DNA from: an uncultured Candidatus Actinomarina sp.
GTDB taxonomy: Bacteria; Actinomycetota; Acidimicrobiia; Actinomarinales; Actinomarinaceae
Direction of reading: 5' to 3'
DNA: 64,000 bases
Assembly (NCBI GenBank): GCA_902526825.1
Contig: CABZMN010000001.1
Span: 7,819-71,818 of the forward strand
The position numbers were made by a program, and so were the translations under genes. Below are positions 1,287 to 56,279 of the stretch, piece by piece. The notes below the pieces were generated by a model. It was not told the origin of the DNA, searched no databases, and saw only the letters and a list, made by a program, of their open reading frames with translations. Within the stretch, counting starts at the first letter, position 1. Each line of letters starts with the position of its first letter.

Positions 1287-1525
1287 AGATTTAAATAACA
1301 ATTCCAACTAAGGATGCTTGAATCAACATAGATTCAATTGCTTGATAGGTATGAAAATCTAATAACCTATTTACAACAGGGGTGAGGATACTTTGTGATG
1401 ATTCAGTATCCACTGCCAAATAAGCAGTTTCATATCCTTGAATTGTTAAATTACAAACTACACACATATTAAAATTCCCTGTTTTGTACAATTTTATAAA
1501 ATTATTAGTTTATTGTAAACACTAG

Positions 1526-4036: not shown

Positions 4037-4097
4037 TATTAACTGTTTTAACGGTATCTAAATAATTTTTTAAAGTAAAAATAAAGGTTCCTTATCT

Positions 4098-4862
4098 TTA
4101 TTTACCAAATCTTCTATCCCGTTGAACATACTCTCTAAGACACCTTAAGAAATCAATCTTCCTAAACTCAGGCCAATAAACATCTTGGAATACAACTTCA
4201 GAATAAGCACTTTGCCATAGTAGAAATCCAGATAGTCTTGACTCTCCGCTAGTTCTAATTATCAAATCGATATCTGGTGAGTCAGGAGAGTATAAATGGT
4301 CTCTTATTTGTTCATCATTAATACTTTTTATCAAATCATCAATGTTTAAATCTTTGTTTTCTTTGAGTAAGCTCTTTATTGCATCAACTATCTCCTGCCT
4401 ACCTCCGTAACCGAGTGCAATTGTAAGTACTTTCTCACCTCCTCCTCTGATTTCTTGTAATTGTTTAATGGAGTTTTGAAGATATTCTGGAAGTAAATCA
4501 GTGCTTCCTACAAAATTTATTTTAAAATTATCAACTAGATCATCTATAAGTAATTCTTGAAATAATTCATTTAAAACAAGATAATAAGAATTTAATTCCT
4601 CATCAGGTCTTGAAAGGTTCTCTTTAGACAGCAACCAGCTTGTAACATGATTAATTCCAAGCTCATCACACCAGGCTAAACACTCTTTAAATCGAACCAT
4701 TCCAATCCTGTAAGAAACTTCATATGTAAGAAGATTCTCCCTTCTTGCATAACGTCTATGCCCATCATGAATTAGGCCGATGTGTTGTGGAAGGTTTTCA
4801 TTTTTTATTTTGTTTTGAAGTCTATTTTCGTATACAGAATAAACAAATCTAGGAGTGACCAT
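4098..4862 (-). CDS. uppS: Isoprenyl (undecaprenyl/Z-prenyl) diphosphate synthase
   Basis: HIGLIHDGHRRYA and IRTSGESRLSGFLLWQSAYSE are cis-prenyltransferase signatures. Confidence 0.9.
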   Translation of the reverse strand: MVTPRFVYSVYENRLQNKIKNENLPQHIGLIHDGHRRYARRENLLTYEVSYRIGMVRFKECLAWCDELGINHVTSWLLSKENLSRPDEELNSYYLVLNELFQELLIDDLVDNFKINFVGSTDLLPEYLQNSIKQLQEIRGGGEKVLTIALGYGGRQEIVDAIKSLLKENKDLNIDDLIKSINDEQIRDHLYSPDSPDIDLIIRTSGESRLSGFLLWQSAYSEVVFQDVYWPEFRKIDFLRCLREYVQRDRRFGK

Positions 4863-4864
4863 AA

Positions 4865-6289
4865 TTAACTACAAATTGCTTCAATGTCTTCAATAGTTTT
4901 TGGTGCTTCCTCGGTTAAATTAATTGGTTCATCATCAGTGCAAACAATATCGTCTTCAATGCGGATCCCTATTCCAAGAAGATCTTTTGGAATTATGTGC
5001 TTAATAGATTTAGCATCTTTCATTTCTTCATTTTCTAATTTTGTCGCTTTTTCCATACCAAGGATTTTTCTTCTTTCTCTAATTTCCTTCGGGTCTCTTT
5101 CAAGTAATTTAAACTCAATTTCTGGTTTGTTTGGCCGTATATAGATACCAGGCTCAACTGTTGTTACCATACCTGGCATTAATTTTCTAGGCTTATTGTT
5201 TTCTTCTATACTTCCAGCGTCGTGAACATCTAGACCCAGCCAATGTCCTGTTCCATGCATAAAAAATTCAAAATAATGCATCATAGAAATTGTTTCATCA
5301 ACTCCCATTGGAACTAATCCTAAATCAACCAATGATTGAGAAATTGAAGAAACTGTTAACTTATGAATATCGGACATAGTATTTTTTGCGTTTACATTAC
5401 TAATCCCAAGGGCTTGAGCCTTTAGTACTTCTTGGTAAACATCTTTTTGTGGAGCTGAGAATTTCCCATTTATTGGAAATGTTCTAGTTACGTCAGAAGA
5501 ATACATATTATATTCTGCTCCAGCATCAATTAAGACCAAACCATCATTATCTACTTTTTCTCTATTTGTTGAGTAGTGAAGAATACAAGAATTGTCTCCA
5601 GATGCAACAATTGATGGATAGCCAAGTCTTTCAGCACCTAAATCATAAAATGTTTTTTCCATTTCTGCTTCAATTTGGTACTCAAACATTTCTTTTTGAG
5701 CGTACTGCATTGATACCTTATGTCCTTCGACTGTTATGTCACAGGCTTTTTTCAAATTATTAATTTCATCATCATTTTTGATAAGTCGAAGCTCAGAAAG
5801 TATAGGAGAGAGAGACTTTAGCGATGCATCACTAAAACTAGCTCCCCTTTGATCGTATGGTGTTGCTTGATTAATTATTTTTTTATCGTATTTTTCGAAA
5901 GAATTATTTGAGTAATTACAGTAAATATTTTGTATTCCTGAGAGTAGTTTTGGGGCTATTTTTTCATAATCCTCATAAGTAAAAGCGTCTGTTGCACCAA
6001 AGAGTTTTTTTGCGCCCTCTGGTCCAAATCTTTTTCCATCCCAGGTTTCCATTTCTACATTTCTATCCTGAACAAATAGATAGAGATCTGGTTGTTTGTT
6101 TTTAATGATGATTATTGCATGTGCAAATGGCTCTGGCCAGGCTGTTAAATAATGGAAGTTTGAATCTTGTCTAAAATCAAAGGCTACATCATTGTTTCTA
6201 TAAATTGTATTGTTTCCATGTAAAAGAACAGCTCCTTCGCCTATTTCTTTAGCAAGATTTTCTCTATTAAATTTTGATAATTCCATCAT
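4865..6289 (-). CDS. Xaa-Pro aminopeptidase (M24B)
   Basis: DAGAEYNMYSSDVTRTF, HGTGHWLGLDVHD and GMVTTVEPGIY are the M24 pita-bread metal-ligand motifs. Confidence 0.85.
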   Translation of the reverse strand: MMELSKFNRENLAKEIGEGAVLLHGNNTIYRNNDVAFDFRQDSNFHYLTAWPEPFAHAIIIIKNKQPDLYLFVQDRNVEMETWDGKRFGPEGAKKLFGATDAFTYEDYEKIAPKLLSGIQNIYCNYSNNSFEKYDKKIINQATPYDQRGASFSDASLKSLSPILSELRLIKNDDEINNLKKACDITVEGHKVSMQYAQKEMFEYQIEAEMEKTFYDLGAERLGYPSIVASGDNSCILHYSTNREKVDNDGLVLIDAGAEYNMYSSDVTRTFPINGKFSAPQKDVYQEVLKAQALGISNVNAKNTMSDIHKLTVSSISQSLVDLGLVPMGVDETISMMHYFEFFMHGTGHWLGLDVHDAGSIEENNKPRKLMPGMVTTVEPGIYIRPNKPEIEFKLLERDPKEIRERRKILGMEKATKLENEEMKDAKSIKHIIPKDLLGIGIRIEDDIVCTDDEPINLTEEAPKTIEDIEAICS

Positions 6290-24118: not shown

Positions 24119-24139
24119 TTTTTGCTACAATTAATCACT

Positions 24140-24297
24140 AAATAAACAAAGTAAGAAAGCGAAGCTAGTGAGAATCTAGCGCTGTCCCGCAACTGTGATT
24201 CGAAAGATAAGTCAGGTCGACTTTATTACTTTTTTACAACAATCCTCGAGAGAAGGAATGGAGTATCGTACTTTTTCTCGTGGTAAGAAAGGAAAAT
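24140..24297 (+). promoter_or_regulatory. Cobalamin riboswitch (short, AdoCbl-variant-like)
   Basis: AGCGAAGCTAGTGAGAATCTAGCGCTGTCCCGCAACTGTGA matches the core ...GGUGaAAaUCC...CCCGCcACUGU. GATAAGTCAGGTCGAC is the B12 box. Only ~20 nt separate ACTGT from the B12 box, so the large peripheral extension appears to be absent. Confidence 0.7.
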
Positions 24298-25269
24298 ATG
24301 AAAACAAAAATACTTCTTCTTGCCATGATAATTTCAATGTGTGGTGGCACATCCGACGAAGGTAATGAAAAAAACATTATTTCATTATCAACCACTCATA
24401 CAGAAATTATTCAAATGCTTGAAGCTGAGAACCAGCTAATTGGTGTTGATTCGTTCTCAGAGACAGAACTTCCAGTAAAAAAAATAGATGCCTATACAGT
24501 TACAGCTGATGAGCTTCTTTTACTCAATCCAGATATTGTAATCGTTGCTTTTGACTTTAACGGTATAGTAGATGGATTAGAAAATTTAAATATTGAATAT
24601 GCTCTCCTTCCACCTGCACAAAATTTGGATGACGTTTATTACCAAATTGAAACCATTGGAACAATTATTAACAAAGAAAATACAGCAAGTTCTTTAGTTT
24701 TAGAAATGAAATCTGACATTGTTGAAATTATTGAGAACTCAGCAACTGAATCTATATCTGTTTATCACGAAATTGGCTACACATATGGCATATATTCAAT
24801 TAATGAAAATTCTTTTTTAGGAGAAATTTACAATATTCTTGGTGTAAGTAATATTGCAGACAAGACTGAAGACCCCTACGGATCTGGTTACCCACTTCTT
24901 GAAGAAGAACAGGTCTTAAATGCAAACCCTGATCTAATCGTAATTGGACACTCTGACTTTTTGAATAAAGACATCTCAACAAGACAAGGCTGGGATGGTC
25001 TTAATGCCGTATCAAATGAGAATGTTTATTTCCTCGATGAAAACTTAGCAAATAATTGGGGTGTAAATACTGTTGATTTGATAAATACATTATCTGAAAT
25101 AATAAAATTTAATGAAGATCCTGGCTTAGTTTATAAATCAAAATATTTAGAAAGTGATCTTGGCAGTTCAGACAGTACTCAAAACATCATCATTGCAACA
25201 ATAATTGTGATAATCTTGACAGCGTACATAGTTATTACCCGAAGGAATAAGAGTAAAGTACAAAGTTAA
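24298..25269 (+). CDS. BtuF/FecB-type (cluster A) ABC substrate-binding lipoprotein with an extra C-terminal TM anchor
   Basis: The track lists GTG 24280; ATG 24298 has a GAAAGGA RBS. Lipobox IISMCGG. IISLSTTHTEIIQMLEAENQLIGVDSFS and NPDIVIV/NPDLIVIG are typical of PF01497-like binding proteins. The C-terminus IIIATIIVIILTAYIVITRRNKSK is a TM helix with a basic stop-transfer. Confidence 0.7.
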   Translation: MKTKILLLAMIISMCGGTSDEGNEKNIISLSTTHTEIIQMLEAENQLIGVDSFSETELPVKKIDAYTVTADELLLLNPDIVIVAFDFNGIVDGLENLNIEYALLPPAQNLDDVYYQIETIGTIINKENTASSLVLEMKSDIVEIIENSATESISVYHEIGYTYGIYSINENSFLGEIYNILGVSNIADKTEDPYGSGYPLLEEEQVLNANPDLIVIGHSDFLNKDISTRQGWDGLNAVSNENVYFLDENLANNWGVNTVDLINTLSEIIKFNEDPGLVYKSKYLESDLGSSDSTQNIIIATIIVIILTAYIVITRRNKSKVQS

Positions 25270-26195: not shown

Positions 26196-27398
26196 ATGCC
26201 TATTGGCAAAGCGGTAATCGGTCAATCAGGTGGTCCGACAGCTGTAATTAATAAGTCACTAGTTGGCTTCATAAAAGAGGCTATTAATCAGGAATACGAT
26301 GAAATACTTGGAGCAAGACACGGACTGGAGGGGATATTAAAGGAAGATTTTGTTGATTTATCTAAACTTTCAGAGTCTCAACTTTATGGAATATCAAAAA
26401 CACCTGCAGCTGCTTTAGGCTCAGTAAGAAAAAAACCAACGGAGAATGATATTGAGCAATTAGTTTCAATCTTTGAGAAACAAAACATAAGATATTTTTT
26501 CTACATCGGTGGAAATGATTCTGCAGAAACTGCAAATCTTGTATATGAGGGTGCAAAAAAAATAGGATATGAAATTAAAGCCTTTCATATTCCTAAAACT
26601 ATAGATAATGACCTCTTGGAAACGGATCATTGTCCAGGTTATGGTTCAGCAGCCCGATTTGTTGCTCATGCATTTCAAGGGGATGATGCTGACAACAGGA
26701 GCCTTAGAGGAATAAAAATCAATATTTTAATGGGGAGGCATGCTGGATGGCTTACCGCTGCCAGCACTTTAGGAAAATCAACTGAAGAAGATGGTCCACA
26801 TTTAGTTTATGTACCTGAAAAAATATTTAATTTAGATGAATTTTTAAAGGATGTAAAAGAAGTTTACGATTCATTAGGAAGATGTGTAGTTGCTGTATCC
26901 GAAGGCATTCACAATAAAGATGGTGAGTACTTTCTCCAAACATACGCAAGCGAGACAGGTTCTGGACTTGCAGGAAAAAAAGATAGCCACGGAAACATCC
27001 AGCTCTCTGGTTCGGGAGCCTTAGGAGATACACTTACAAACATTGTCTCAGAACATATTGAAGGAGCGAGGGTAAGAGCAGATACGTTTGGCTATCTTCA
27101 GAGATCTTTTCTTGCAGATATTTCGGAAGTAGACGCTGAAGAAGCCGAGAGGGTTGGACAGCATGCAGTTGTAGTTTCAAAAGATAAAGAAAGCGGATCA
27201 ATTATTCTAAGAAGACAGTTTTCAGAAACTTATTATTGCCATGTAGATGTTGTTGAATTACATAAGGTTGCAAAACACACAAAAAATATGCCTGAAGAAT
27301 ATCTAGAAAAAAATAAGCCGTATGTAACAAACAGTTTTTTTGAATACGCAATGCCTTTAACTGGAGGTATAGAACCTAAAACACAGATATTTGTTTAG
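26196..27398 (+). CDS. pfp: 6-phosphofructokinase, predicted pyrophosphate-dependent
   Basis: GQSGGPTAVIN, IGGNDS, IPKTIDNDL and MGRHAGWL. Asp at the fourth position of GG(D/N)xS and Lys in PKTIDND are the residues that distinguish PPi-PFK from ATP-PFK. Confidence 0.8.
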   Translation: MPIGKAVIGQSGGPTAVINKSLVGFIKEAINQEYDEILGARHGLEGILKEDFVDLSKLSESQLYGISKTPAAALGSVRKKPTENDIEQLVSIFEKQNIRYFFYIGGNDSAETANLVYEGAKKIGYEIKAFHIPKTIDNDLLETDHCPGYGSAARFVAHAFQGDDADNRSLRGIKINILMGRHAGWLTAASTLGKSTEEDGPHLVYVPEKIFNLDEFLKDVKEVYDSLGRCVVAVSEGIHNKDGEYFLQTYASETGSGLAGKKDSHGNIQLSGSGALGDTLTNIVSEHIEGARVRADTFGYLQRSFLADISEVDAEEAERVGQHAVVVSKDKESGSIILRRQFSETYYCHVDVVELHKVAKHTKNMPEEYLEKNKPYVTNSFFEYAMPLTGGIEPKTQIFV

Positions 27399-27452
27399 AG
27401 GTCAAAAAAATTAAATTCTTTATGATTTAATAATTATTATTAATACATAAAC

Positions 27453-27956
27453 ATGAAAAAAATAAGCATACTCTTTTTTATTTTATTTTTTAATATCTGC
27501 AGTACCTCAGAAAATGGGGTTATTTCAATTTCTGAAAACACAACAACAACCCAAATCATAAATGAAGAAGATTATCCATTGGTTTTAGCAAAGTGTTTAA
27601 ATGAAGAAAAGGGCTATCAAATTATAACTCCTTTTGATTTAGAGGATTTAAAAACAACAATAAACCAGTTAAGACAAAGTAAGGAAGACGAGTTAGAACT
27701 TGGAGAAGCTATCGATTTTTGTATTGATAAATACAACCTATGGATGGATCGAAGCACTTTAAACCCAGAAGAACTGGCAAGTTTGTATGATGAAAATATT
27801 TCTTTGGCAAGATGTCTGAGAGAAAAAGGTCTTAATGTACCCGATCCAACTCAAGATCAACCTAAAATTGACCTAAGCAACTTAGTTCAATCAAAAGATG
27901 AAATAATTGCTTTATTAGACGAATGTGAGCTTGATGAAAAAACAAACAAAAAATAA
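27453..27956 (+). CDS. Acidic lipoprotein, Cys-repeat paralogue A (two C...C modules)
   Basis: Signal peptide with lipobox FFNIC|S. Modules LAKCLNEEKGYQIITP...IDFC and LARCLREKGLNVPDP...LDEC. Confidence 0.75.
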   Translation: MKKISILFFILFFNICSTSENGVISISENTTTTQIINEEDYPLVLAKCLNEEKGYQIITPFDLEDLKTTINQLRQSKEDELELGEAIDFCIDKYNLWMDRSTLNPEELASLYDENISLARCLREKGLNVPDPTQDQPKIDLSNLVQSKDEIIALLDECELDEKTNKK

Positions 27957-28533
27957 GTTCTTTATATTATTAATTTGTTTACTAGTACAGGCTTGTTCAG
28001 CTTCGAATGAGCAAAAAGGAGTCGTTTCTTCAGAAGACTTAACAACACAAACAACTATTAAAACAGTAACAACAGTCCAGGATAGCCCTGAAGTTGAAGT
28101 TCTAACAGAAGAGGAAGCACAGCTAATACTTGCAGGATGTTTAAGGGAAAAGGGTTATGACGTCTCAGATCCAAAAAATGATGAGGGCTTAAGAACAGTT
28201 TTAACACCGATATTTATTAGTTTCAATGAAAAACAGAGGGAGGAGTTGTTTGACAATATACAATTGTGTGCAGAGGAGAACTCTATTCCACTTGAAAGCA
28301 ACAATAACTTTGAAAATCCTGCTGATGTTGCTGATAGACTTGATACCGAACTTGAGTTTGCGCAGTGTCTAAGAGGTAAAGGAATAGATGTTTCTGATCC
28401 ATCATCTGAGGAACCATTAAGGCCAATACTTATTGAACTTGTACAGTCACAAAAATATACAGCAGATCAAATTCGAGAGGCTGCTGCTGAGTGCTTTGAC
28501 GACCTAGGGCTTGATCCTCCTCCTGGCGGGTAA
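27934..28533 (+). CDS. Acidic lipoprotein, Cys-repeat paralogue B
   Basis: The track start is GTG 27925; ATG 27934 gives MKKQTKNKFFILLICLLVQAC|S. Modules LAGCLREKGYDVSDP...IQLC and FAQCLRGKGIDVSDP...AAEC. Overlaps paralogue A by 23 nt. Confidence 0.75.
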   Translation: MKKQTKNKFFILLICLLVQACSASNEQKGVVSSEDLTTQTTIKTVTTVQDSPEVEVLTEEEAQLILAGCLREKGYDVSDPKNDEGLRTVLTPIFISFNEKQREELFDNIQLCAEENSIPLESNNNFENPADVADRLDTELEFAQCLRGKGIDVSDPSSEEPLRPILIELVQSQKYTADQIREAAAECFDDLGLDPPPGG

Positions 28534-28557
28534 TAAAAAATACTTTATAATTCTGAT

Positions 28558-29154
28558 GTGAGAAAAAAAGTAACATTATTCATATTGTTTTTTTCTTTTT
28601 GTTCGCTATTTCAAAATGAAGAACAAGCTGTGGTATCTGTTGTCGATACAGATAAAGGAAAAGAGGCTATTGCAGCAGGTATAGAAATTAACGAAGAGAA
28701 GGAGGAAATAGCAGATGAAGATGCTCCTCTTGTTTTAGTTCAATGCGTAAACGAAGCAGGTTATAAATTTCAAGAACCAAAAAACTTTATAGATCTATAT
28801 ACAACAATTTCAACTTATTTCGAGACACTTACCGAACAAGAAGCAGAAGAACTATGGAAATCTATTGAAGATTGTGCACTCAAATACAACTTATGGGGAG
28901 TTGCTGATGAAGCACAATTTGAAGACCCAGTCCAGACTTCAAAAGAACTAGATAGAGCTTTATTTATAGCAAATTGTTTTAGAGAAGAAGGATACGAAAA
29001 AGTTCCAGACCCTAATTATTTCAACAGAGATGTAAATCTTGATGCATATATTGATGAAAATTGGGAACTCAGAGAAGATGATCCCTTAGTTCAAACTTGG
29101 CAAGGTTGTGAGGAAAAGTTACCTGAAGAACTAAAGGAAGAGTGGGATGATTAA
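28558..29154 (+). CDS. Acidic lipoprotein, Cys-repeat paralogue C
   Basis: GTG start, lipobox FFSFC|S. Modules LVQCVNEAGYKFQEP...IEDC and IANCFREEGYEKVPDP...WQGC. Confidence 0.75.
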   Translation: MRKKVTLFILFFSFCSLFQNEEQAVVSVVDTDKGKEAIAAGIEINEEKEEIADEDAPLVLVQCVNEAGYKFQEPKNFIDLYTTISTYFETLTEQEAEELWKSIEDCALKYNLWGVADEAQFEDPVQTSKELDRALFIANCFREEGYEKVPDPNYFNRDVNLDAYIDENWELREDDPLVQTWQGCEEKLPEELKEEWDD

Positions 29155-29224
29155 AACTTACAATAAAAATTTTGTCTTAATATCTCTAAATACAATACAA
29201 TGCTTTAAGTAGAAAAATACACAT

Positions 29225-30811
29225 ATGAAGTTAAATATATTTAAAAATAGAAATTTTTATATTTTGATAGTTTTAATTTTTGTTGGTTCTGTCACTTATT
29301 ATTTTGGAACCCAAAATACTGAATCTTCATCTATAAATAAAACGCTACAACTGACAACTATATCGGTGAAACAAGGTGATCTTGAAAAGAAAGAAGAATA
29401 CAACGGGACATTGAGACAAACTGACAGCAAAATACTTAATAGTCCTATGGCTGGTGTTGTAACTTATATTCCAGATGAAGGAACTATTGTAAAATTTGGA
29501 GAGATACTCTTTGCTGTTGATAACAAACCAGTCATCCTTGTTGAAGGATCAGTTCCTTTTTATAGAACATTAGATCTTAACTCTGATCCAGGACCAGATG
29601 TATTACAACTTGAAAAAGCACTAGTTTATTTAGGATATGCAGCTGATGGATTTGCTCCAGATGATACTTTTGATGAAACTACTTCACAGATGCTTAACAA
29701 GCTTTATCTTGACTACAAAATAGAAACAAAATCTGAAGTTACTCCATCTGAACAGGTTGCTATCAACTTGAAAGAAACAGAAGTGAAGAATATTGAAGAA
29801 ACTATTGATTCAGGCGGGACAACAATTACTGAAGTAAATGACAAAAAAAAGAAACTAGATGATGCAAAAGAAGATGCAACAGAAGAGAGCGCAGGTTGGA
29901 AAGCAGCAGATACAGCAATTAAAGATGCTGAAGAGACCCTAACGCTTTATAGAGATGAAACAAATCCAAAAACAAAAGAGAAAAAAGCTGATGGAACTTT
30001 AGATTCTGCTATCGAAGACTTAGAACAAACAATAGAAGAACAAAAAAGAATTAAAGCACTAGAAAAAGGAAAAGAGTCAGGCATAGACGCAACAGAGGCA
30101 CTTGCAATTGAGACAGCCCAAAAAGCTTATGATGATGTTTTAAAAGACTACAACGAAGGAGTTGATCAGGAAGCTGAATTAGCAAAAGCAAAAGAAGAAC
30201 TAGAAGAACTTAGGTTAGCTTCAAAGTCAGAAACATTTAGTCCAACAAACGCCTATGCATCTGAAACAGCAATAATTGTTGGTTCTTATATAAACAAGGT
30301 TGGATCTGCTGTAGTTCTAAACTCTCAGCTTTATAATATTTCTTCAGTTGGAATTGAGGTTGTTTTCCAAGTTGATGCATCAGATCAAGAGACAGTTTCA
30401 ATTGGAGATAGCGTTGAGATTGAACTTCCAACAGATGAAAGAGTACCAACGGTGATTACCTTTATAGACCAAGTAGTTACTCAAACTCAAACTGGAGATT
30501 TTATTGAGGTGATTCTTGAAGTACTATATCCAGAAAAAATTGAAGCTTACGATCAAGCACCTGTAAAAGTATTTGTTACAACTGAAATATCCGAGAATGT
30601 GCTTTATGTACCAGTAAATGCATTAATTGCTTTAGCTGAGGGAGGTTATGCCTTAGAAATCTATGAAGGTGAAGCTGAAGGAGGAGTTTTTGAGGGTGAG
30701 TCAGGAGTTGACACTATCTATGTAGCTGTTGAAATTGGAGTCTTTACTGATGGGTTTGTAGAAATCAAGGGAAATATTACTAAAGGTCAACTTGTAGTCG
30801 TACCACGATGA
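29225..30811 (+). CDS. Membrane-anchored HlyD/MacA-like periplasmic adaptor with an inserted peptidoglycan-binding domain and a long coiled coil
   Basis: N-terminal TM helix (FYILIVLIFVGSVTYYF) and a lipoyl-like hairpin (AGVVTYIPDEGTIVKFGEILFAV). PG_binding_1-like PDVLQLEKALVYLGYAADGFAPDDTFDETTSQML, a ~170-aa Glu/Lys/Ala coiled coil, and a C-terminal beta-barrel region. The stop overlaps the ATPase start (ATGA). Confidence 0.75.
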   Translation: MKLNIFKNRNFYILIVLIFVGSVTYYFGTQNTESSSINKTLQLTTISVKQGDLEKKEEYNGTLRQTDSKILNSPMAGVVTYIPDEGTIVKFGEILFAVDNKPVILVEGSVPFYRTLDLNSDPGPDVLQLEKALVYLGYAADGFAPDDTFDETTSQMLNKLYLDYKIETKSEVTPSEQVAINLKETEVKNIEETIDSGGTTITEVNDKKKKLDDAKEDATEESAGWKAADTAIKDAEETLTLYRDETNPKTKEKKADGTLDSAIEDLEQTIEEQKRIKALEKGKESGIDATEALAIETAQKAYDDVLKDYNEGVDQEAELAKAKEELEELRLASKSETFSPTNAYASETAIIVGSYINKVGSAVVLNSQLYNISSVGIEVVFQVDASDQETVSIGDSVEIELPTDERVPTVITFIDQVVTQTQTGDFIEVILEVLYPEKIEAYDQAPVKVFVTTEISENVLYVPVNALIALAEGGYALEIYEGEAEGGVFEGESGVDTIYVAVEIGVFTDGFVEIKGNITKGQLVVVPR

Positions 30812-31512
30812 AAACCGATACAAAAACTGTAATTTCAATCAATGATATTTCAAAAGTTTATGAAGGACCACCCCCTGTAAAAGCACTAGATGGAGTTTCT
30901 TTAAATGTTAATGAAGGAGATTTAGTTGCAATTGTTGGACAATCTGGAAGTGGTAAATCAACTTTACTAAATATGATTGGTTTACTGGATAGTGTTACAG
31001 ACGGCTCAATTGAAATAGAAGGCAAAGATATATCTGACTTAACAGATAATGAACTCTCAAAATTTAGAGGTGAAAAAATAGGATTTATTTTTCAAAGCTT
31101 TTTTCTTTTGCCTGGATTAACCGCACAAGAGAATGTTGCAGAGGGGTTACTATATCAAGGGATTTCAAGGTCAGAAAGGTTAGAAAAAGCCGGAGATGTT
31201 TTAGAACAAGTAGGACTAGGTGATAGGTTAAGCCACCTTCCAAAAGAACTTTCCGGTGGTCAGCAACAAAGAGTTGCAATTGCTAGAGCACTAGTACAAG
31301 ACCCAGCATTTGTTTTAGCAGATGAGCCAACTGGAAATTTGGATAAAGAATCAGGAATAAATATTTTAAATATCTTAAAAGAACTTAATTACCAAGGAAA
31401 AACTGTAATTATGATTACTCACAATCAAGAACATGCAAATATGTTTAAAAAAGTAATTGAATTGGTTGATGGAAAAATTGTAAAAAATGAAAAGAAAAAA
31501 ACTAAGAACTAG
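30808..31512 (+). CDS. ABC transporter ATP-binding protein, MacB/LolD-type
   Basis: Walker A GQSGSGKST, Q-loop FIFQSF, signature LSGGQQQRVAIARAL, Walker B VLADEPTGNLD and H-loop ITHN. Confidence 0.92.
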   Translation: MKTDTKTVISINDISKVYEGPPPVKALDGVSLNVNEGDLVAIVGQSGSGKSTLLNMIGLLDSVTDGSIEIEGKDISDLTDNELSKFRGEKIGFIFQSFFLLPGLTAQENVAEGLLYQGISRSERLEKAGDVLEQVGLGDRLSHLPKELSGGQQQRVAIARALVQDPAFVLADEPTGNLDKESGINILNILKELNYQGKTVIMITHNQEHANMFKKVIELVDGKIVKNEKKKTKN

Positions 31513-32671
31513 AGATTTATTTTTTGTTGCACTTTATGGAGTTCGCGCAAGAAAAGGCAGAGCTACTCTTACTTCTATTGGAATTGGAATTGGAATAGCT
31601 GCAATAGTTGCAGTTTCTGGAATATCAGCATCTGGAAGGGCTGACTTACTATCAACTCTTGAGTCACTTGGAACAAATCTGGTAAAAGCTTCTCCTCAAG
31701 CAGGATTTTTTGGAACTCAAGAAGATTTACCAAAAGGAGTTCTCGGAATGGTTGAAAGAATTGGACCAGTTGAAGAAGTAACATCTACAACTCAGACTGA
31801 TTTACTAGTTCGTAGAAGTAACTTTATATCAGAATTTGAAGGTGGGGGAATTTCAACAATAATTACAAGCGCAGAACTTTTAGATGTAATTGGAGGTAAT
31901 CTTGTTGAAGGCAGGTTCATTACACCTGGTTTGTCTAACATACCTGTAACTGTGTTAGGAAGTGTTACTGCTGAGAGACTTGGAATTACAAATCTCTCGA
32001 CACCTACAAAAATTCTCATTGATAATGAATGGTTTGGGGTAATTGGGGTATTAGAAGAGCTTAAAATACATCCAGACCTAGATAGATCAGTATTTATAGG
32101 TTATGGAGTTGCAAAAACTCTTTTTGATATTGATGAGGAACCAACAACAATTTATTTAAGAGCAAATCCAACTTTTATTGAGGATGTTGTTGAGGTACTA
32201 GCTCCATCAATGAACCCTGAAAATCCTGATCAAGTAGAAGTTACTAGACCCTCAGACGCACTTGAAGCGCAACAAGCAGCTGAAGAAGCATTTACTAATT
32301 TATTACTGGGGCTAGGTTCTGTAGCTCTTCTTGTTGGAGGTGTTGCAATTGCAAACGTAATGGTTATGTCTGTTCTTGAAAGAAGAATGGAAATAGGTGT
32401 GAGAAGATCAATTGGTGCAACCCGTAGAGAAATAAGGTATCAATTTTTATTAGAAAGCATAGTTTTATCAGGAATAGGAGGCCTTGTTGGTGTTGGCCTA
32501 GGAACCTTAATTACTTTGGCTTACACTAACTACACAGATATTGTATTCTCAATACCTATATGGCAGATTTTAGGAGCAGTTTTTTTAGCCTTATTAATTG
32601 GAGCAATTTCAGGAGTATATCCAGCTATAAAAGCATCAAAAATCCAACCAGCAGAAGCAGTAAGAAAGTAA
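31487..32671 (+). CDS. ABC transporter permease, FtsX/MacB family (type VII)
   Basis: TM1 (ATLTSIGIGIGIAAIVAV), then a ~230-aa extracytoplasmic domain and a C-terminal 3-TM FtsX domain (IGVRRSIGATRREI...PAIKASKIQPAEAVRK). Confidence 0.88.
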   Translation: MKRKKLRTRDLFFVALYGVRARKGRATLTSIGIGIGIAAIVAVSGISASGRADLLSTLESLGTNLVKASPQAGFFGTQEDLPKGVLGMVERIGPVEEVTSTTQTDLLVRRSNFISEFEGGGISTIITSAELLDVIGGNLVEGRFITPGLSNIPVTVLGSVTAERLGITNLSTPTKILIDNEWFGVIGVLEELKIHPDLDRSVFIGYGVAKTLFDIDEEPTTIYLRANPTFIEDVVEVLAPSMNPENPDQVEVTRPSDALEAQQAAEEAFTNLLLGLGSVALLVGGVAIANVMVMSVLERRMEIGVRRSIGATRREIRYQFLLESIVLSGIGGLVGVGLGTLITLAYTNYTDIVFSIPIWQILGAVFLALLIGAISGVYPAIKASKIQPAEAVRK

Positions 32672-33189
32672 TTCTTCTTGCTTTGTTGGTTTCTGCCTGC
32701 ACTATTGGTGAAGAAGAAACTAAGGGCGTAGTCTCACTCGAAGAAAGTGTATCCTCTACAACAATTATTGAGCAAGTAACTTTTGAAGAAGGTGTCCTGA
32801 ATTTTGCACAATGTATGAGAGAAGAAGGCATTGACTTTCCAGACCCTTCATTTGATATAGATGGCAATCCAGAATTTGATAATTTAGATATTGAAAATGA
32901 AGAAGAATTTGAAGAAGCATTTACAAACTGTGAAGATATTTTGAGAAACGCTCTTCCTGATCAATTTGATCTCGATCCAGAAGTTGAGGCAGCATTGGTT
33001 GATGCTTCATTAGAATTTTCAAAATGTATGAGAGATGAAGGTATTAGTAACTTTCCTGACCCAACACCAGGTGAATTTGGATTTTTTGCTTTTAGAGATG
33101 CAGATATTGAATGGACTTCAGACGAGGTTCAAGAAGCATTTGAAATCTGCCAACCAGAAAATCCTCTTGATTCGATAGGTGATGATTAA
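32560..33189 (+). CDS. Acidic lipoprotein, Cys-repeat paralogue D (start uncertain)
   Basis: Lipobox LLVSAC|T with the Cys codon at 32698..32700. Modules FAQCMREEGIDFPDP...FTNC and FSKCMRDEGISNFPDP...FEIC. The only canonical in-frame start is ATG 32560, 112 nt inside the permease gene. Confidence 0.7.
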   Translation: MADFRSSFFSLINWSNFRSISSYKSIKNPTSRSSKKVILLALLVSACTIGEEETKGVVSLEESVSSTTIIEQVTFEEGVLNFAQCMREEGIDFPDPSFDIDGNPEFDNLDIENEEEFEEAFTNCEDILRNALPDQFDLDPEVEAALVDASLEFSKCMRDEGISNFPDPTPGEFGFFAFRDADIEWTSDEVQEAFEICQPENPLDSIGDD

Positions 33190-33662
33190 ATTCCTGAATC
33201 AAAATACATAGGTGGGCTTACTCCTATTGTCTGCCAACACAAGCCTTCACTAATTGCACATTCATCATATGTAAACACCCATGTAACAACAAAATACTCA
33301 TTTTTATTATTTAAAATTTTTATTTCATAATGAATCATCTTGTCATCTTCTTGAATTACTTCATATGAGTAATCTGTTAAATCAACTATTGCGTTGTATG
33401 GAGTAGAAATAAGCATTGATTTAAATCTTTCAATTGGTCCGGTAACCTCTTTATTGTCTTTATGAGCATTATTCCAGATTATTTCAACAGCTTTATCTGG
33501 GTCCGATGAGAAGTTTCTATAGCTTTCCATTATTTCAATAAGAACATCCTCAGAATCTTTTTGTTCAACTACAAGATCATTATCAGCATTTGTAGAATTA
33601 CAACTGAATAAAAAAAAGATAATTAAAAATAATTTTTGAAACTTCTTATGCACTAAAAACAA
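33186..33662 (-). CDS. Lipoprotein of unknown function
   Basis: Signal peptide LIIFFLFSC|N. Convergent with paralogue D, overlapping it by 4 nt. Confidence 0.6.
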   Translation of the reverse strand: MFLVHKKFQKLFLIIFFLFSCNSTNADNDLVVEQKDSEDVLIEIMESYRNFSSDPDKAVEIIWNNAHKDNKEVTGPIERFKSMLISTPYNAIVDLTDYSYEVIQEDDKMIHYEIKILNNKNEYFVVTWVFTYDECAISEGLCWQTIGVSPPMYFDSGI

Positions 33663-33723
33663 GCGTCACAACTAAGTACAAATGCAGTAAGAAAGTTAAA
33701 AAGAGAAATGACCAAAAAAGCCT

Positions 33724-33742
33724 TTTTTCTAATTTACTCACA
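33724..33742. repeat. Copy 1 of the 19-nt element TTTTTCTAATTTACTCACA
   Basis: An exact second copy lies 104 bp away, within a ~620-bp region that has no long ORF. Confidence 0.85.
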
Positions 33743-33827
33743 ATGAGATCGTGACTAAGCCTATTGAATTTAGTACTAAATAGAAGTGAAAAACAAAAGC
33801 AACTCCCATGAATGCCCAAAATGTACG

Positions 33828-33846
33828 TTTTTCTAATTTACTCACA
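33828..33846. repeat. Copy 2 of the 19-nt element TTTTTCTAATTTACTCACA
   Basis: Identical to 33724..33742. In both copies TCAC is followed 9-12 nt later by GTGA. Confidence 0.85.
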
Positions 33847-33885
33847 GTTGAATGGTAGTGATAAAAAAAAGTTTTAAGTAATTAA

Positions 33886-34044
33886 TTACTCTATATTTGC
33901 TTTTTCGTATGCTTGACTATAAAGAATTAAGGTAGGTGCCCATAGTCCAACATAGATTGCTAGCTGTGAATCATCAAGCACAACATAGATTAATACCGAT
34001 GCGATCACGGAAACTATGCTTGCATAAAGTCCAAGTTTTATCAT
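33886..34044 (-). CDS. Possible 52-aa small membrane protein
   Basis: My translation is MIKLGLYASIVSVIASVLIYVVLDDSQLAIYVGLWAPTLILYSQAYEKANIE. There is a GAAAGGA RBS about 8 nt upstream. Below the ORF-track cutoff. Confidence 0.35.
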   Translation of the reverse strand: MIKLGLYASIVSVIASVLIYVVLDDSQLAIYVGLWAPTLILYSQAYEKANIE

Positions 34045-34102
34045 TAAAAGGTCCTTTCAATTAATATTATAATTTACCACAATTATTAGTATTAATTAGT
34101 AA

Positions 34103-34246
34103 ATGATAGAAACATTAAGTCAAAACCCGCTTTCATTGGTATTAATATTTCCAATTGTAACTCTTACGGTCTTCGTAGTTGGAATAATAAGGATAGATTT
34201 AGCTAAATTTCAACAAAAACATGTTTCAGGCAAAGAAGAAGAATAA
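34103..34246 (+). CDS. Possible 47-aa single-TM protein
   Basis: My translation is MIETLSQNPLSLVLIFPIVTLTVFVVGIIRIDLAKFQQKHVSGKEEE. Below the ORF-track cutoff. Confidence 0.3.
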   Translation: MIETLSQNPLSLVLIFPIVTLTVFVVGIIRIDLAKFQQKHVSGKEEE

Positions 34247-34283
34247 TCATTTTTCTGTCACAACAAAATACTTATATTAGATT

Positions 34284-34784
34284 ATGAATTTTGGTGAACT
34301 AGAAAACCTTAATGACGCCGAACTCTTTGATTTACAGAATAAAATATCAGAAATTGTAAAAAAAAGAAATTTTGAAAAAGGTGATTTAGAGGAAATAATT
34401 AATAATTCTTTTAATGTAGGTTTTCCCAAAGTTGACGGCCTAGGACTAAACCCTTGGATTGAGAATTCCTTAATTATTTGCCCTGGAGCAAGAATTGATA
34501 AAACAAAAACAAGACATATTTGTAAATTTACTGTCATTGACGAGGAATGGTCATGGGAGTCACCACACATGATTAGTGATGTAATACGAAGAGACCAATC
34601 TTCAAAAAACTTTAGGCAACATTCGATAACGCTAATTTCACCATTTGAAGGCATGAAGGTTCAAGTAATATCTCAAAAATCACAACAGGGAAAACATCTT
34701 GTTGAGGGCGTCGAGTCTTTTGAATTTAAAAACGGGATACTTGAGAAAACTATGACAAAATCATCAAGATCAAGGGAACATTAA
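34284..34784 (+). CDS. Hypothetical cytoplasmic protein
   Basis: 166-aa ORF. Preferred over the antisense ORF 34277..34654 on composition. No motif recognised. Confidence 0.5.
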   Translation: MNFGELENLNDAELFDLQNKISEIVKKRNFEKGDLEEIINNSFNVGFPKVDGLGLNPWIENSLIICPGARIDKTKTRHICKFTVIDEEWSWESPHMISDVIRRDQSSKNFRQHSITLISPFEGMKVQVISQKSQQGKHLVEGVESFEFKNGILEKTMTKSSRSREH

Positions 34785-49574: not shown

Positions 49575-50702
49575 TTAGATGAAATTTTGAAATTCTTTTT
49601 TAAAAAGCTCTGGCTCCAAAAGAAAACAATCATGGCCCTTTGTTGAATTTATAACCTTCACAGTTGTTTTAATACCGTTTTCTTTTAAAAGATTTTCAAA
49701 TTCAACTTGTTCCTCCGGATAAAAACAAACATCTGAATCAACGGAAATAATCAAAACGTTTATGTTCTTTAATTTTTTTATCTCCTTGGTGTCAATATAA
49801 AAATTTTGCCACCCTTTAATTATGGAGTTATATGACTCTGGAGTAAACCTTTGAATAAATTTTTCACCTTGGTGCATCATGTAAGACTCTTGAGATGTAG
49901 ATAAAAATCCCTCAAGAAAGTTTTTATCGTACTTATTTTCGTCTTTTGCTCTACTTGATAATAGTTGAAGTGAAATGTAGGTTTTATGAGCAATCATTCT
50001 CGCTAGTGATAAGTATTCAGCTTGTCTTCCGTTTGAGCTTTTTGCAAGATCTAATATGTAGCCTTGTTCAAGATTATGTAACAATTGGATTGTAGACAGT
50101 CTATACCCACTTGAAATCGATATTAGATTTTTGACGTAGTCCGGATATAAAAGAGAAAATTCAAGAGCCATCAAACCTCCTATTGATGGACCAATTACAG
50201 CCTCTAAAGATACAACACCCAAATCATCCAACAATAGTTTTTGAGAGATTTCTATATCTTTAAATGAAATAAAAGGAAAGTCATTACTATAGATTTCTCC
50301 TGTTTTTATATTTATTGAATTAGGTCCAGTAGACCCATAACAACCACCAAGATAATTAGCACACACTACAAAGTATTTATTTGTATCAATAATTTTATTA
50401 GGCCCTACAAACTCATCCCACCAACCAATTTCCAGTTCATTGTTCCATGGAATATCGAAATTATCTTCTTTTTTGTAATTTCCTGCCAGCATATGACTTC
50501 CAGTCAGTGCATGAAAAATTAATACGGCATTGTCACCTTTTTCGGACAAAGTTCCATAAGTTGTATAAGCAATTTCTACATTCTCAAGCAGCTCACCAGA
50601 TTCAAGTTTAAGTTGTGGAATGTAAAACTTGCTTGTTTTATCTTGTACTTTCAAGTGCTTGTGATAAGTCTTCAATGATATCTTCAATATCTTCGATACC
50701 AA
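49575..50702 (-). CDS. metX: Homoserine O-acetyltransferase
   Basis: FHALTGSHMLAG, the nucleophile motif GPSIGGLMALE, and a late GHDCFL. The true start may be TTG 50654, which reduces the overlap with metY. Confidence 0.88.
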   Translation of the reverse strand: MVSKILKISLKTYHKHLKVQDKTSKFYIPQLKLESGELLENVEIAYTTYGTLSEKGDNAVLIFHALTGSHMLAGNYKKEDNFDIPWNNELEIGWWDEFVGPNKIIDTNKYFVVCANYLGGCYGSTGPNSINIKTGEIYSNDFPFISFKDIEISQKLLLDDLGVVSLEAVIGPSIGGLMALEFSLLYPDYVKNLISISSGYRLSTIQLLHNLEQGYILDLAKSSNGRQAEYLSLARMIAHKTYISLQLLSSRAKDENKYDKNFLEGFLSTSQESYMMHQGEKFIQRFTPESYNSIIKGWQNFYIDTKEIKKLKNINVLIISVDSDVCFYPEEQVEFENLLKENGIKTTVKVINSTKGHDCFLLEPELFKKEFQNFI

Positions 50703-51918
50703 TTGAAAGTCTAACTAATTCTGGTGGAGCCCCAGCAGCAACAAGTTGCTCATCATCTAGTTGAGAGTGAGTAGTCGACGCAGGATGTATAGCCAAAGAT
50801 CGAGTATCTCCAACATTTGCAACATGTCTAAACATCTTTAAGTTGTCTATAAACTTTTGCCCTGCATCCTTCCCACCTTTAATACCAAATACGACCATGG
50901 TTCCTCCAGTGCCTTTTAGGTATTTTTCAGAAAGCTCATATGCAGGATCATCCTTAAGCCCTGGATATCTTATCCACTCAACAAGTTCATGGTTAGATAA
51001 GTATTCAGCTGCTTTAATTGCATTTTCACAATGTCTATCCATTCTTAGACCTAGAGTCTCAAGACCACTCATTACTTCAAATGCAGTTTCTGGAGACATA
51101 TTTGCTCCTAGATTTCTTAAAGGTACAGTTCTTAATCTTAGTGAGTAGGCAACACTGCTTAGGTCCCCTAAATCATGTCCCCATCTCATGCCGCCATAAC
51201 TAGTATCAGGTTTGTCATATAAAGGAAAATTACCATTTCCCCAATCAAAACCACCTTTTTCAATAACTGCACCAGCAATTACACGTCCGTGGCCTGACAT
51301 CCACTTTGTTAGTGAATATACAACAATATCTGCACCAAATTCAAATGATTTTTGAATTGCAGAAGTTGTAAATGTAGCATCAACAATTAGTGGAATTCCT
51401 TTTGAGTGGGCAATCTCAGACAATGCTGTAACATCAGCTACAACTAATCCAGGATTTGTAATTGTTTCACAGTAGATAGCTCGTGTTTTGTCATCTATTG
51501 CATCTTCAACAGCCTTCAGATCAGTGATATCAACTTTTTTAGAATCTATTCCGTACTCTGGCAGTATATTGTCAAACATAGTGTAAGTTCCACCATAAAG
51601 TTGATTCGCAGTAACAAAATTATCACCTTGACTCATTATGTTGATAAGAGAATACATCACAGCAGATGTACCAGACGATAAAGCTACACACATAGCACCT
51701 TCTTCAAGATCAGTTAGTCTTGCTTCCAATGCGCCTACTGTTGGATTGCCTAATCGAGAGTAAATATTACCAAACTCTTTAAGGGCAAATAAACTTGCTG
51801 CGTGTTCAGTATTGTTGAACTGATAAGCAGTTGTTTTATATATAGGTACTGTAATTGATCCTTCTGAATCTGCATCAGAATCATACCCTGCATGTATAAG
51901 TTTTGAATTAAACTTCAT
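50638..51918 (-). CDS. metY: O-acetylhomoserine sulfhydrylase (PLP-dependent)
   Basis: YSRLGNPT, VVYSLTKWMSGHG (PLP Lys) and LVRLSIGIEDIEDIIEDL. Confidence 0.9.
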   Translation of the reverse strand: MKFNSKLIHAGYDSDADSEGSITVPIYKTTAYQFNNTEHAASLFALKEFGNIYSRLGNPTVGALEARLTDLEEGAMCVALSSGTSAVMYSLINIMSQGDNFVTANQLYGGTYTMFDNILPEYGIDSKKVDITDLKAVEDAIDDKTRAIYCETITNPGLVVADVTALSEIAHSKGIPLIVDATFTTSAIQKSFEFGADIVVYSLTKWMSGHGRVIAGAVIEKGGFDWGNGNFPLYDKPDTSYGGMRWGHDLGDLSSVAYSLRLRTVPLRNLGANMSPETAFEVMSGLETLGLRMDRHCENAIKAAEYLSNHELVEWIRYPGLKDDPAYELSEKYLKGTGGTMVVFGIKGGKDAGQKFIDNLKMFRHVANVGDTRSLAIHPASTTHSQLDDEQLVAAGAPPELVRLSIGIEDIEDIIEDLSQALESTR

Positions 51919-52032
51919 AAATTTTCTCCTTTTTTGGAGAAGGATTTTGACTATTTAGTTGCATCTCTGCCACATTTTCAGGCACCTTGGATAGTCATCC
52001 AGGTTGCCGAGGTCTTAACCTTCTCTATATGC
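51919..52032 (-). promoter_or_regulatory. SAM riboswitch of the SAM-I clan (SAM-I/IV- or SAM-IV-like) with an SD-sequestering platform
   Basis: The minus strand reads GCATATAGAGAAGGTTAAGACCTCGGCAACCTGGATGACTATCCAAGGTGCCTGAAAATGTGGCAGAGATGC. It has P1 GCAT/ATGC, conserved AGAG, GGCAACC, GGUGCC and GAGAU, with P3 TGGAT/ATCCA and P4 GCC/GGC. Downstream is TTCTCC-aaaaaa-GGAGAA and then the ATG. Confidence 0.65.
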
Positions 52033-52139
52033 TTTTATCATTATATCAAATATTTTATTTTTCTGAAAATTTTTTGAATTTATAGGTTTTATTTCAATTC
52101 CTAATTATTCCTATATCAGTCAATCTTTATTATTAAATT

Positions 52140-56021: not shown

Positions 56022-56022
56022 G

Positions 56023-56097
56023 TGGGCCTAGTTAGATTTGAACTAACGACCTCATCCTTATCAGGGATGCGCTCTAACCAGGCTGAGCTATAGGCCC
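56023..56097 (-). tRNA. tRNA-Ile (GAU)
   Basis: The reverse complement folds as GGGCCTA/TAGGCCC acceptor, anticodon loop CTGATAA and T-loop GTTAGTTCAAATCTAAC. Confidence 0.92.
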
Positions 56098-56186
56098 TTT
56101 CGCTCTATCCACATTAGTAATGAATATGAAATATTTCTAAAATTTTTTCATTTACGAGCAAATTAAGGGCATAATATATGTTGCGA

Positions 56187-56259
56187 GGGGATGTAGCTCA
56201 GCTGGAAGAGCACCTGCTTTGCAAGCAGGGGGTCGTGGGTTCAAGTCCCATCATCTCCA
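56187..56259 (+). tRNA. tRNA-Ala (UGC)
   Basis: GGGGATG/CATCTCC acceptor with the G3:U70 identity pair. Anticodon loop TTTGCAA and T-loop GTGGGTTCAAGTCCCAT. Confidence 0.92.
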
Positions 56260-56279
56260 CAATAGGGTAACCTTATATT

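Follow-up and report, generated by a model that had tools for sequence, protein, structure and literature searches.

What do small cysteine-containing lipoproteins do for, or undergo at, a MacB-type transporter? The question is raised by a stretch of 64,000 nt from an uncultured Candidatus (Ca.) Actinomarina sp. (contig CABZMN010000001.1), called the window throughout. Between positions 27453 and 33189, seven genes encode three small proteins (A, B, and C), a membrane-anchored adaptor, an ATP-binding cassette (ABC) ATPase, a permease, and a fourth small protein (D). The first-pass annotation of the window, made from the letters and their open reading frames (ORFs), recognized the core as a MacB-type (Type VII) ABC system and considered the small proteins to be either cargo of the pump or its accessory subunits. 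We assign a probability of about 0.5 to the second possibility, in which they are anchored accessory or substrate-capture subunits of a MacAB-like machine. The novelty of the system is that a known motor and adaptor are combined with a new class of obligatory partner, and the window holds a lineage-specific, four-copy version. No such system was found in searches of Pfam, NCBIfam, the PDB, or the full-text literature, as the annotation had anticipated.

Linkage of the small-protein gene to the pump across genomes

The association of lipoprotein and pump was followed in both directions. A genome scan with the lipoprotein profile, taking one genome per species, gave at least 552 loci, and the best 80 were kept. 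These came from Acidimicrobiia, Amycolatopsis (which is over-represented), Umezawaea, Micromonosporaceae, Dactylosporangium, Solirubrobacteraceae, Thermoleophilaceae, Nitriliruptorales, Euzebyaceae, and Chloroflexia; ORFs in high-GC DNA were called mechanically. All 80 loci encode a lipoprotein, an adaptor, an ATPase, a permease, a response regulator, and a histidine kinase, in the same order, and beyond genus-level synteny they share no further conserved neighbor. A metagenome scan with the adaptor profile returned at least 437 matches. Among the best 80, 64 had at least 500 bp of upstream DNA, and in every one of the 64 the lipoprotein gene lies directly upstream of the adaptor gene. The start codon of the adaptor overlaps the stop codon of the lipoprotein by 4 nt in most loci (131 of 147).

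Individual look-ups gave the same picture. They covered Actinomarina relatives, three soil long-contig metagenome assemblies (one a metagenome-assembled genome [MAG] titled Euzebyaceae), a MAG of Limnocylindrales (Chloroflexota), and a JGI metagenome. Each of the six look-ups with called genes has a lipoprotein, an adaptor, an ATPase, and a MacB_PCD/FtsX permease, and the five made with distant homologs (L004–L009) have a response regulator and histidine kinase as well, usually divergent. A Streptomyces plasmid is annotated in the order response regulator, ATP-binding protein, hypothetical protein, peptidoglycan-binding protein, ABC transporter ATP-binding protein, ABC transporter permease. 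The canonical cassette is one lipoprotein gene upstream of the adaptor gene, together with a two-component system. Aligned from end to end, the permeases of the window and of a Chloroflexota cassette (L007) share 46% identity, and D aligns with the small protein of the same cassette (BLASTP E = 3e-18, KGVVSLE against QGVVTLE). On the strength of these two alignments, the entire cassette is orthologous across phyla. The linkage of lipoprotein and machine is near-absolute; the co-occurrence with MacB-type loci carrying a peptidoglycan-binding adaptor, which the first-pass annotation had proposed to survey, is conserved, and is both stronger and wider than expected.

Could the small protein be an independent wall or surface protein that merely shares an operon, and its regulation, with the pump? 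The small proteins contain no recognizable functional domain, which leaves room for such a role. However, the linkage is strict in both directions and across phyla, the gene order is fixed, and the stop and start codons overlap, a combination difficult to account for if the proteins did not depend functionally on each other, and we regard simple co-regulation as very improbable. The small cysteine protein is shown, or supported by homology, to be a fourth, obligatory component of the machine.

The neighboring two-component system suggests a different partner. The lipoprotein might be a third component of the signaling pair, modulating the sensor domain of the kinase, with the pump as the regulated output. 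Actinobacteria provide precedents in LpqB for MtrB, CseA for CseC, and HbpS for SenS. The kinases of the cassette have two transmembrane (TM) segments around a sensor loop of roughly 120–180 amino acids, and a response regulator and histidine kinase are adjacent at each of the 80 genome loci. The lipoprotein gene, however, overlaps and is transcribed with the adaptor gene rather than with the kinase operon, which is usually on the opposite strand. Furthermore, the window and several Actinomarina relatives keep and multiply the lipoprotein without an adjacent kinase. Because four copies are retained where the two-component system is absent from the flank of the cassette, the lipoprotein appears tied to the pump and not to the kinase, and we consider a co-sensor role unlikely.

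Some genomes may hold several cassettes. Five places match the lipoprotein in the 11.85-Mb Nonomuraea gerenzanensis record NZ_LT559118.1, which is filed as a "plasmid," and likewise five in an Embleya replicon. One cassette (L076) is on a contig of a MAG labeled Burkholderiales, which is probably mis-binned.

The small proteins and their family

A–D are predicted from sequence to be lipoproteins of one paralogous family. They share a common plan: a signal peptide leading to a Cys, a [KQN]-[GA]-V-[VI]-S string, a Ser/Thr/Glu linker, and two modules of ∼65 amino acids with the form ...A-x-C-[LMVF]-[RN]-x2-3-G-...-P ... C. All four are ORF calls on the forward strand that align with one another. 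Paralog A (27453–27956, 167 amino acids) has a signal peptide running to Cys16 (FNIC/S, with the slash after the Cys), an NGVIS string, a Thr-rich linker, and two C-x-[RN]-x2-3-G...P...C modules. Paralog B starts at 27925 (GTG; 202 amino acids) or 27934 (ATG; 199 amino acids) and ends at 28533; its lipobox is VQAC/S and its string KGVVS. Paralog C (28558–29154, 198 amino acids, GTG start) has FSFC/S, a QAVVS string, and a net charge of −34. Paralog D (32560–33189, ATG start, 209 amino acids) has the lipobox VSAC/T and a KGVVS string, and its mature protein begins at Cys47, encoded at 32698. The Cys is thus present in all four, as annotated. Judged by the lipobox form [LVI][ASTVI][GAS]C, B (VQAC) and D (VSAC) are acceptable, but A (NIC) and C (SFC) have an atypical residue at position −1. 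Orthologs of A and C keep the Cys within canonical lipoboxes (LTAC/S in P0122, an ortholog of C). The string near the lipidated Cys is also real, although its offset is 5–8 residues rather than the 4–7 given at first.

In two alignments, A, B, and C are 22%–35% identical to D and share with it four invariant Cys in addition to that of the lipobox. The score against the family hidden Markov model falls from D (158 bits) through B (121) and C (98) to A (84); by sequence, D is the copy most like the canonical family. The two-cysteine module does occur in two copies, for profiles of module 1 and module 2 match each other with a probability of 99.9% (E = 4e-32). AlphaFold2 models were obtained for D (predicted local distance difference test [pLDDT] score 69) and for a high-GC member (pLDDT 70, with folded parts at 86–94). 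The modeled module consists of a helix, a loop, a short β-hairpin, and a second helix, with one invariant Cys in each helix. Foldseek comparison of both models with the PDB gave no fold match (best E = 3.3 and 3.4). A profile of four sequences had matched designer pentatricopeptide repeat (PPR) proteins (E = 7.5e-10), with no individually significant stretch in the two best. The match was lost with a profile of 123 sequences (best PDB E = 0.55), and together with the empty Foldseek result this marks the PPR-like helical repeat as an artifact.

Against the 2025 copy of Pfam and release 20 of NCBIfam, A–D have no match, and neither do 109 homologs (ten distant ones and 99 from alignment A4). With no relative in sequence or fold in the PDB either, the small proteins stand outside any named family, and the first-pass annotation had been unable to place them in one. 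Scattered matches to CHCH/CX9C, H-NS_N, and PBP_GOBP were subthreshold and were set aside as noise. RefSeq and JGI label members of the family "hypothetical protein." A profile of A–D nevertheless finds 3,336 clusters at 50% identity, 190 of them at E ≤ 1e-10, in Actinomycetota and some Chloroflexota. A typical member has ∼200 amino acids, comes from a high-GC genome, and has the consensus "...VASL...FAxCMRxHGIDMPDP...AC..." occurring twice. Module number varies among family representatives, with three in 13 of them and one in 34. The D orthologs P0001 and P0002 (237 amino acids) have three because one module has been duplicated exactly, in tandem, within the protein. The acidity of the family (median net charge −27) was considered as a clue to binding of cationic peptides and rejected, since the adaptor ectodomain and the MacB_PCD domain are acidic too and 10% of the members are basic.

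Anchoring is not uniform. A lipobox is present in 209 of 263 members, P0168, P0182, P0267, and P0327 are anchored by a TM segment, and P0361 has a signal peptidase I type of site (ALAQ/GVVTLE, with the slash here at the cleavage site). In Chloroflexota members a signal peptidase I site directly precedes GVVTLE. A V-[AV]-[ST]-[LIV] string is nonetheless kept near the anchor or mature N terminus in P0182, P0327, P0361, and the Chloroflexota members, and is absent from P0168 and P0267 in the stretch examined. In lipidated members the median spacing between Cys and string is 10 residues, and the string of P0182 is about as far from its TM helix. Because the motif keeps a fixed distance from whichever anchor is used, it resembles a strand for docking to a partner close to the membrane rather than a signal for acyl-chain extraction.

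This point bears on the possibility that the small proteins are cargo, extracted from the membrane or moved through the wall by the MacB machine, with the N-proximal string as the recognition signal. The models for such a process are LolCDE, which handles lipoproteins, and the Aat system, which handles dispersin. The permease does belong to the LolC/E superfamily, the conserved motif is near the lipidated Cys, the region in which LolCDE recognizes its substrates, and four adjacent paralogs resemble a multisubstrate export locus. The matches to the lolCE model (TIGR02212) are weak, however, at 37 bits for the window permease and 59 bits for that of L004 against a cut-off of 362. Members with a TM anchor, or with none, cannot be substrates of acyl-chain extraction, yet several keep the motif. 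Moreover, the host lineages have no outer membrane to serve as a destination, and the 4-nt overlap with the adaptor gene suggests equimolar production. We therefore think it improbable that the small proteins are cargo. In a related scheme, lipoproteins of single-membrane bacteria would be the objects of the motor, which would spend ATP on extracting membrane-anchored proteins in a Lol-like manner, on releasing them, or on activating them by a change in conformation. This proposal is doubtful to a like degree, as is its corollary that the G-V-[AV]-[ST]-[LIV] strand is a handle and the four proteins of Ca. Actinomarina are alternative clients.

The invariant cysteines allow yet another function. 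Exactly five Cys are found in 202 of 207 mature proteins, the four of the domains being invariant, and the paired Cys are ∼40 residues apart on two helices. This constancy and spacing suggest that the four domain Cys probably form two structural disulfides. They might instead, with the Met and His of "CMRxHG," be ligands for Cu(I), Ag(I), or some other soft metal, which would then be delivered to the adaptor. The order of regulator/kinase, small protein, adaptor, and pump mirrors that of cus, the best NCBIfam matches of the regulator and kinase are heavy-metal CopR/CopS-type models, the adaptors match CzcB/NccB weakly, and at one locus (L006) an HMA P-type ATPase neighbors the cassette. The CopR/CopS-type scores, though, are far below their cut-offs (185 versus 279 and 141 versus 293). 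The window paralogs do not conserve the Met and His; in place of Met they have L, V, or F, as would be predicted of a residue in the core. The spacing of the Cys pairs is typical of structural disulfides, and MacB-type pumps are not known as metal exporters. A metal or cation chaperone is in our judgment a poor fit, with only a slim chance of being correct.

The pump, its adaptor, and a possible mechanism

The identity of the motor is clear from its domains. The ATPase (30808–31512, +; 234 amino acids) belongs to the MacB/LolD/FtsE subfamily. It matches ABC_tran in Pfam (E = 2e-36), and its best NCBIfam models are MacB (2.9e-71), DarD, and LolD (1e-66); the translation contains a Walker A motif (GQSGSGKST), an ABC signature (LSGGQQQR), and a Walker B motif (FVLADEPT). 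The Type VII ABC permease (31487–32671, +; 394 amino acids) passes the Pfam cut-offs for both MacB_PCD (E = 1e-16; 62 bits, cut-off 27) and FtsX (E = 5e-22; 79 bits, cut-off 25.5). It has four hydrophobic TM segments (residues 28–46, 279–297, 320–338, and 352–370), with an extracytoplasmic MacB_PCD domain of ∼230 amino acids between the first two, followed by the FtsX domain. The best sequence matches in the PDB are Spr0695 (5xu1; 1e-23) and MacB (4e-23). The domain matches and the four TM segments agree with the original assignment of the core.

The adaptor (29225–30811, +; 528 amino acids) is more divergent. It has an N-terminal TM segment (residues 11–29), a β/lipoyl-like part, a degenerate PG_binding_1 domain (∼123–175), an insertion rich in Lys and Glu, and a C-terminal β-barrel/membrane-proximal part. 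The match to PG_binding_1 (PF01471) is below threshold (E = 0.015; 15.9 bits versus a cut-off of 23) and covers profile positions 2–33 of 57; there is no direct match to HlyD in Pfam. BLASTP aligns the window adaptor with that of L007 over residues 27–159 (E = 1e-18) and again over 268–527 (E = 7e-23), the latter convincingly from near residue 340. The adaptors of the relatives (∼350 amino acids) pass PG_binding_1 (E 1e-8 to 1e-11, 34–44 bits). They match HlyD_3 (9e-7), with 30.0 for L007 and 21.5 for L005, just under the gathering score of 22.2, and TIGR01730 (RND_mfp; 5e-14) at 52 bits, below its cut-off of 94.9. A profile of 28 adaptors matches peptidoglycan-binding domains (1e-7) and MacA (4dk1; 1e-4) in the PDB. 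In the canonical relatives, PG_binding_1 sits where the TolC-docking α-helical hairpin would be, and the cassettes at the genome loci examined contain no TolC-like gene. Because it is homologous to adaptors that match PG_binding_1, HlyD_3, and RND_mfp, the 528-residue protein is predicted to be an adaptor of the membrane-fusion protein type with a wall-binding domain in place of the hairpin. The first-pass description of a peptidoglycan-binding, HlyD/MacA-like adaptor is therefore supported by homology, but not by the subthreshold match in the window itself.

The insertion (∼165 amino acids, about residues 176–340, encoded at 29750–30244; boundaries approximate) is absent from the canonical adaptors, as seen in alignment A6 and as a gap between the BLASTP segments, and its composition suggests a helical or coiled-coil structure. 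Adaptors of the Actinomarina clade have 526–574 amino acids and are roughly 68%–77% identical to that of the window. A database protein of 730 amino acids (P0386) is 98% identical to the window adaptor and carries ABC_tran as well; it probably reflects a gene call that fused adaptor and ATPase over their ATGA overlap, or else a frameshift in that assembly.

The closest known relatives are the Gram-positive MacAB-like systems YknWXYZ of Bacillus subtilis and Spr0693-0694-0695 of Streptococcus pneumoniae. Like the cassette, these have a separate permease and ATPase, a TM-anchored adaptor, and no outer membrane. YknX binds peptidoglycan, and YknW is an additional accessory membrane protein (PMC5985334). 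The cassette differs from both systems in the dedicated PG_binding_1 domain of its adaptor and in the two-component system of its canonical form, and from YknWXYZ in that its accessory protein is a two-Cys-module lipoprotein unrelated to the polytopic YknW. The best architectural analogy is offered by cusRS/cusCFBA, in which a regulator pair likewise adjoins the operon and a small periplasmic protein, CusF, is encoded directly before the adaptor CusB, which it feeds, and the pump. Such a gene order suggests that substrate may be handed over to the adaptor. In contrast to cusCFBA, the pump is a Type VII ABC transporter and not of the resistance-nodulation-division (RND) class, and there is no outer-membrane factor; the small proteins have neither sequence nor fold similarity to CusF and do not conserve its metal-ligand residues. 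LolCDE-LolA shares the Type VII architecture, and here too lipoproteins are encoded alongside. Unlike that system, the cassette has only one permease gene and an adaptor in the place of LolA, and its lipoprotein family includes nonlipidated members; no LolA-type acceptor is among its conserved neighbors at the 80 genome loci, which are the adaptor, ATPase, permease, and two-component system.

For function, LanI with LanFEG may be the nearer analogy to the lipoprotein and its pump. The lantibiotic immunity and resistance cassettes LanI + LanFEG + LanRK and NSR + NsrFP + NsrRK each unite a two-component system, an ABC exporter, and a binder that is extracellular but anchored in the membrane, and binder and pump cooperate at the membrane surface. 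LanFEG is of the ABC-2 type and BceAB/NsrFP has 10 TM segments; neither has an adaptor. To our knowledge, LanI and the lipoprotein family of the cassette are not homologous. Dedicated extracytoplasmic partners bound to the periplasmic domain of a Type VII ABC transporter are known from FtsEX-EnvC/PcsB/RipC and YbbAP-TesA. In those cases the partner is a coiled-coil activator of hydrolases or itself a lipid hydrolase, whereas the lipoproteins of the cassette have no recognizable enzymatic domain.

We propose that the cassette encodes a MacAB-like (Type VII ABC) envelope machine, which in the window would serve a single-membrane actinobacterium. By homology, the MacB-type permease, presumably a dimer, is powered by the LolD/MacB-type ATPase and paired with the membrane-anchored adaptor and its predicted peptidoglycan-binding domain. 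A lipid, a TM helix, or their own N terminus would keep the small proteins at the membrane surface, and they would dock through the conserved G-V-[AV]-[ST]-[LIV] strand ∼10 residues from the anchor. The tandem helix/β-hairpin/helix modules, each probably stabilized by a disulfide, would be presented outside, where they may capture or hand over the substrate of the pump or gate the adaptor. ATP-driven mechanotransmission would then drive a compound located in the envelope out of the outer leaflet or the zone of the wall, and the neighboring two-component system presumably induces the cassette in most lineages. A 4-nt stop/start overlap such as that with the adaptor gene is a common mark of subunits made in fixed proportion. 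That overlap, lipidation that is not universal, and the retention and multiplication of the lipoprotein without a kinase favor an accessory over a cargo; the choice left open by the first-pass annotation now leans, unproven, this way.

Several points weigh against accessory subunits as we describe them. Only the best-scoring loci were sampled, and looser or lipoprotein-free variants further out would escape such a view. The C-adaptor junction in the window is a gap of 70 nt, so translational coupling is not evident there. Multiple adjacent paralogs are, by analogy, also typical of exported cargo such as bacteriocin precursors. The disulfides are inferred, and the four Cys could be metal ligands instead.

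A strictly conserved cassette this widespread, known from hundreds of species genomes and from at least 3,300 clusters of proteins at 50% identity, provides a new class of extracytoplasmic partner for research on Type VII ABC transporters. It bears on the role of adaptor-equipped MacB-type pumps where there is no outer membrane, and the one-copy version occurs in culturable, genetically tractable hosts such as Streptomyces and Amycolatopsis.

The four-copy locus of Ca. Actinomarina and its surroundings

The genome of Ca. Actinomarina is among the smallest known from free-living organisms. The window has a G+C content of about 33%–35%, and the nearest database proteins are labeled Candidatus Actinomarina sp., Acidimicrobiia bacterium, or Acidimicrobiaceae bacterium. 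Five loci of this clade (L001–L003, L172, and L173) have the same arrangement of three lipoprotein copies upstream, one downstream, and a long adaptor. The bracketing of the pump by four paralogs that was first described is thus correct for the window, but it is lineage specific; the general cassette has a single lipoprotein and the two-component system. No response regulator or kinase was detectable anywhere in the 64 kb, and in L001–L003 and L172, as in the window, no two-component system adjoins the four-copy cassette. L173 differs. Between its full gene A and a fragment of 60 amino acids that matches the C-terminal module of A, positions 1393–5239 hold a histidine kinase and a response regulator (− strand) and two unknown ORFs, an insert that looks like a duplication or insertion scar. 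Because L173 has the regulator pair and the window and other relatives are without it, association with a two-component system is variable within the Actinomarina clade. Under the mechanism proposed above, the four diverged accessory copies would plausibly widen the range of ligands. In the same lineage the adaptor has gained its long insertion, and the window genome appears to have lost the regulator. Retention of the cassette and fourfold multiplication of the lipoprotein in this low-G+C (∼33%) genome argue for an important role in the surface ocean.

All seven ORFs were found on the + strand at the positions first annotated, tightly packed and co-directional, and measurement of their junctions returned the values reported before. 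The overlap of A with B is 23 nt if B is read from the ATG at 27934 and 32 nt if it is read from the GTG at 27925, B and C are separated by 24 nt and C and the adaptor gene by the 70 nt mentioned above, the adaptor and ATPase genes overlap at ATGA, and the ATPase and permease genes overlap by 26 nt. The true start of D in the window genome is uncertain. Only one canonical start precedes its signal peptide, the ATG at 32560, and a D gene read from there overlaps the permease gene by 112 nt. The next candidate, a TTG at 32683, is too late for a signal peptide. Orthologs of D elsewhere have an ordinary MKK...LTSC signal peptide that starts just past the permease stop codon. A scan of 27000–34300 for promoters and terminators was uninformative on operon structure, since shuffled sequence contained more promoter-like sites and at least as many terminator-like ones.

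The flanks of the cassette vary within the clade. At L001–L003 (about 3185–4751) and L172 (4717–5160), the phosphofructokinase (PFK) gene and gene A are separated by a 4HBT thioesterase gene, and in L001–L003 this is followed by an Acyl_transf_3 gene that ends 3 nt before A. The window has neither, and PFK is followed directly by A. On the other side, a convergent ORF of 158 amino acids (33186–33662, −) overlaps the stop of D by 4 nt and has a lipobox-like FLFSC/N sequence. It has no match in Pfam or NCBIfam and falls outside the Cys-module family; a homolog of 154–157 amino acids is located 3′ of D in L001–L003, L172, and L173.

Farther from the cassette, the divergent genes for tRNA-Ile(GAT) (−) and tRNA-Ala(TGC) (+) are 90 nt apart at 56022–56260; the usual place of this tRNA pair is an rRNA spacer, yet the window has no detectable gene for rRNA. 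An adenosylcobalamin (AdoCbl, B12) riboswitch (24134–24273, +; 62.6 bits) is directly upstream of an ORF at 24280–25269 that encodes a BtuF-like Peripla_BP_2 protein with a lipobox-like N terminus and a C-terminal TM tail, and BtuCD-type permease or ATPase genes do not adjoin this ORF. An S-adenosylmethionine riboswitch of the SAM-I/IV type (51945–52037, −; 72.4 bits) lies upstream of an ORF at 50638–51918 (−).

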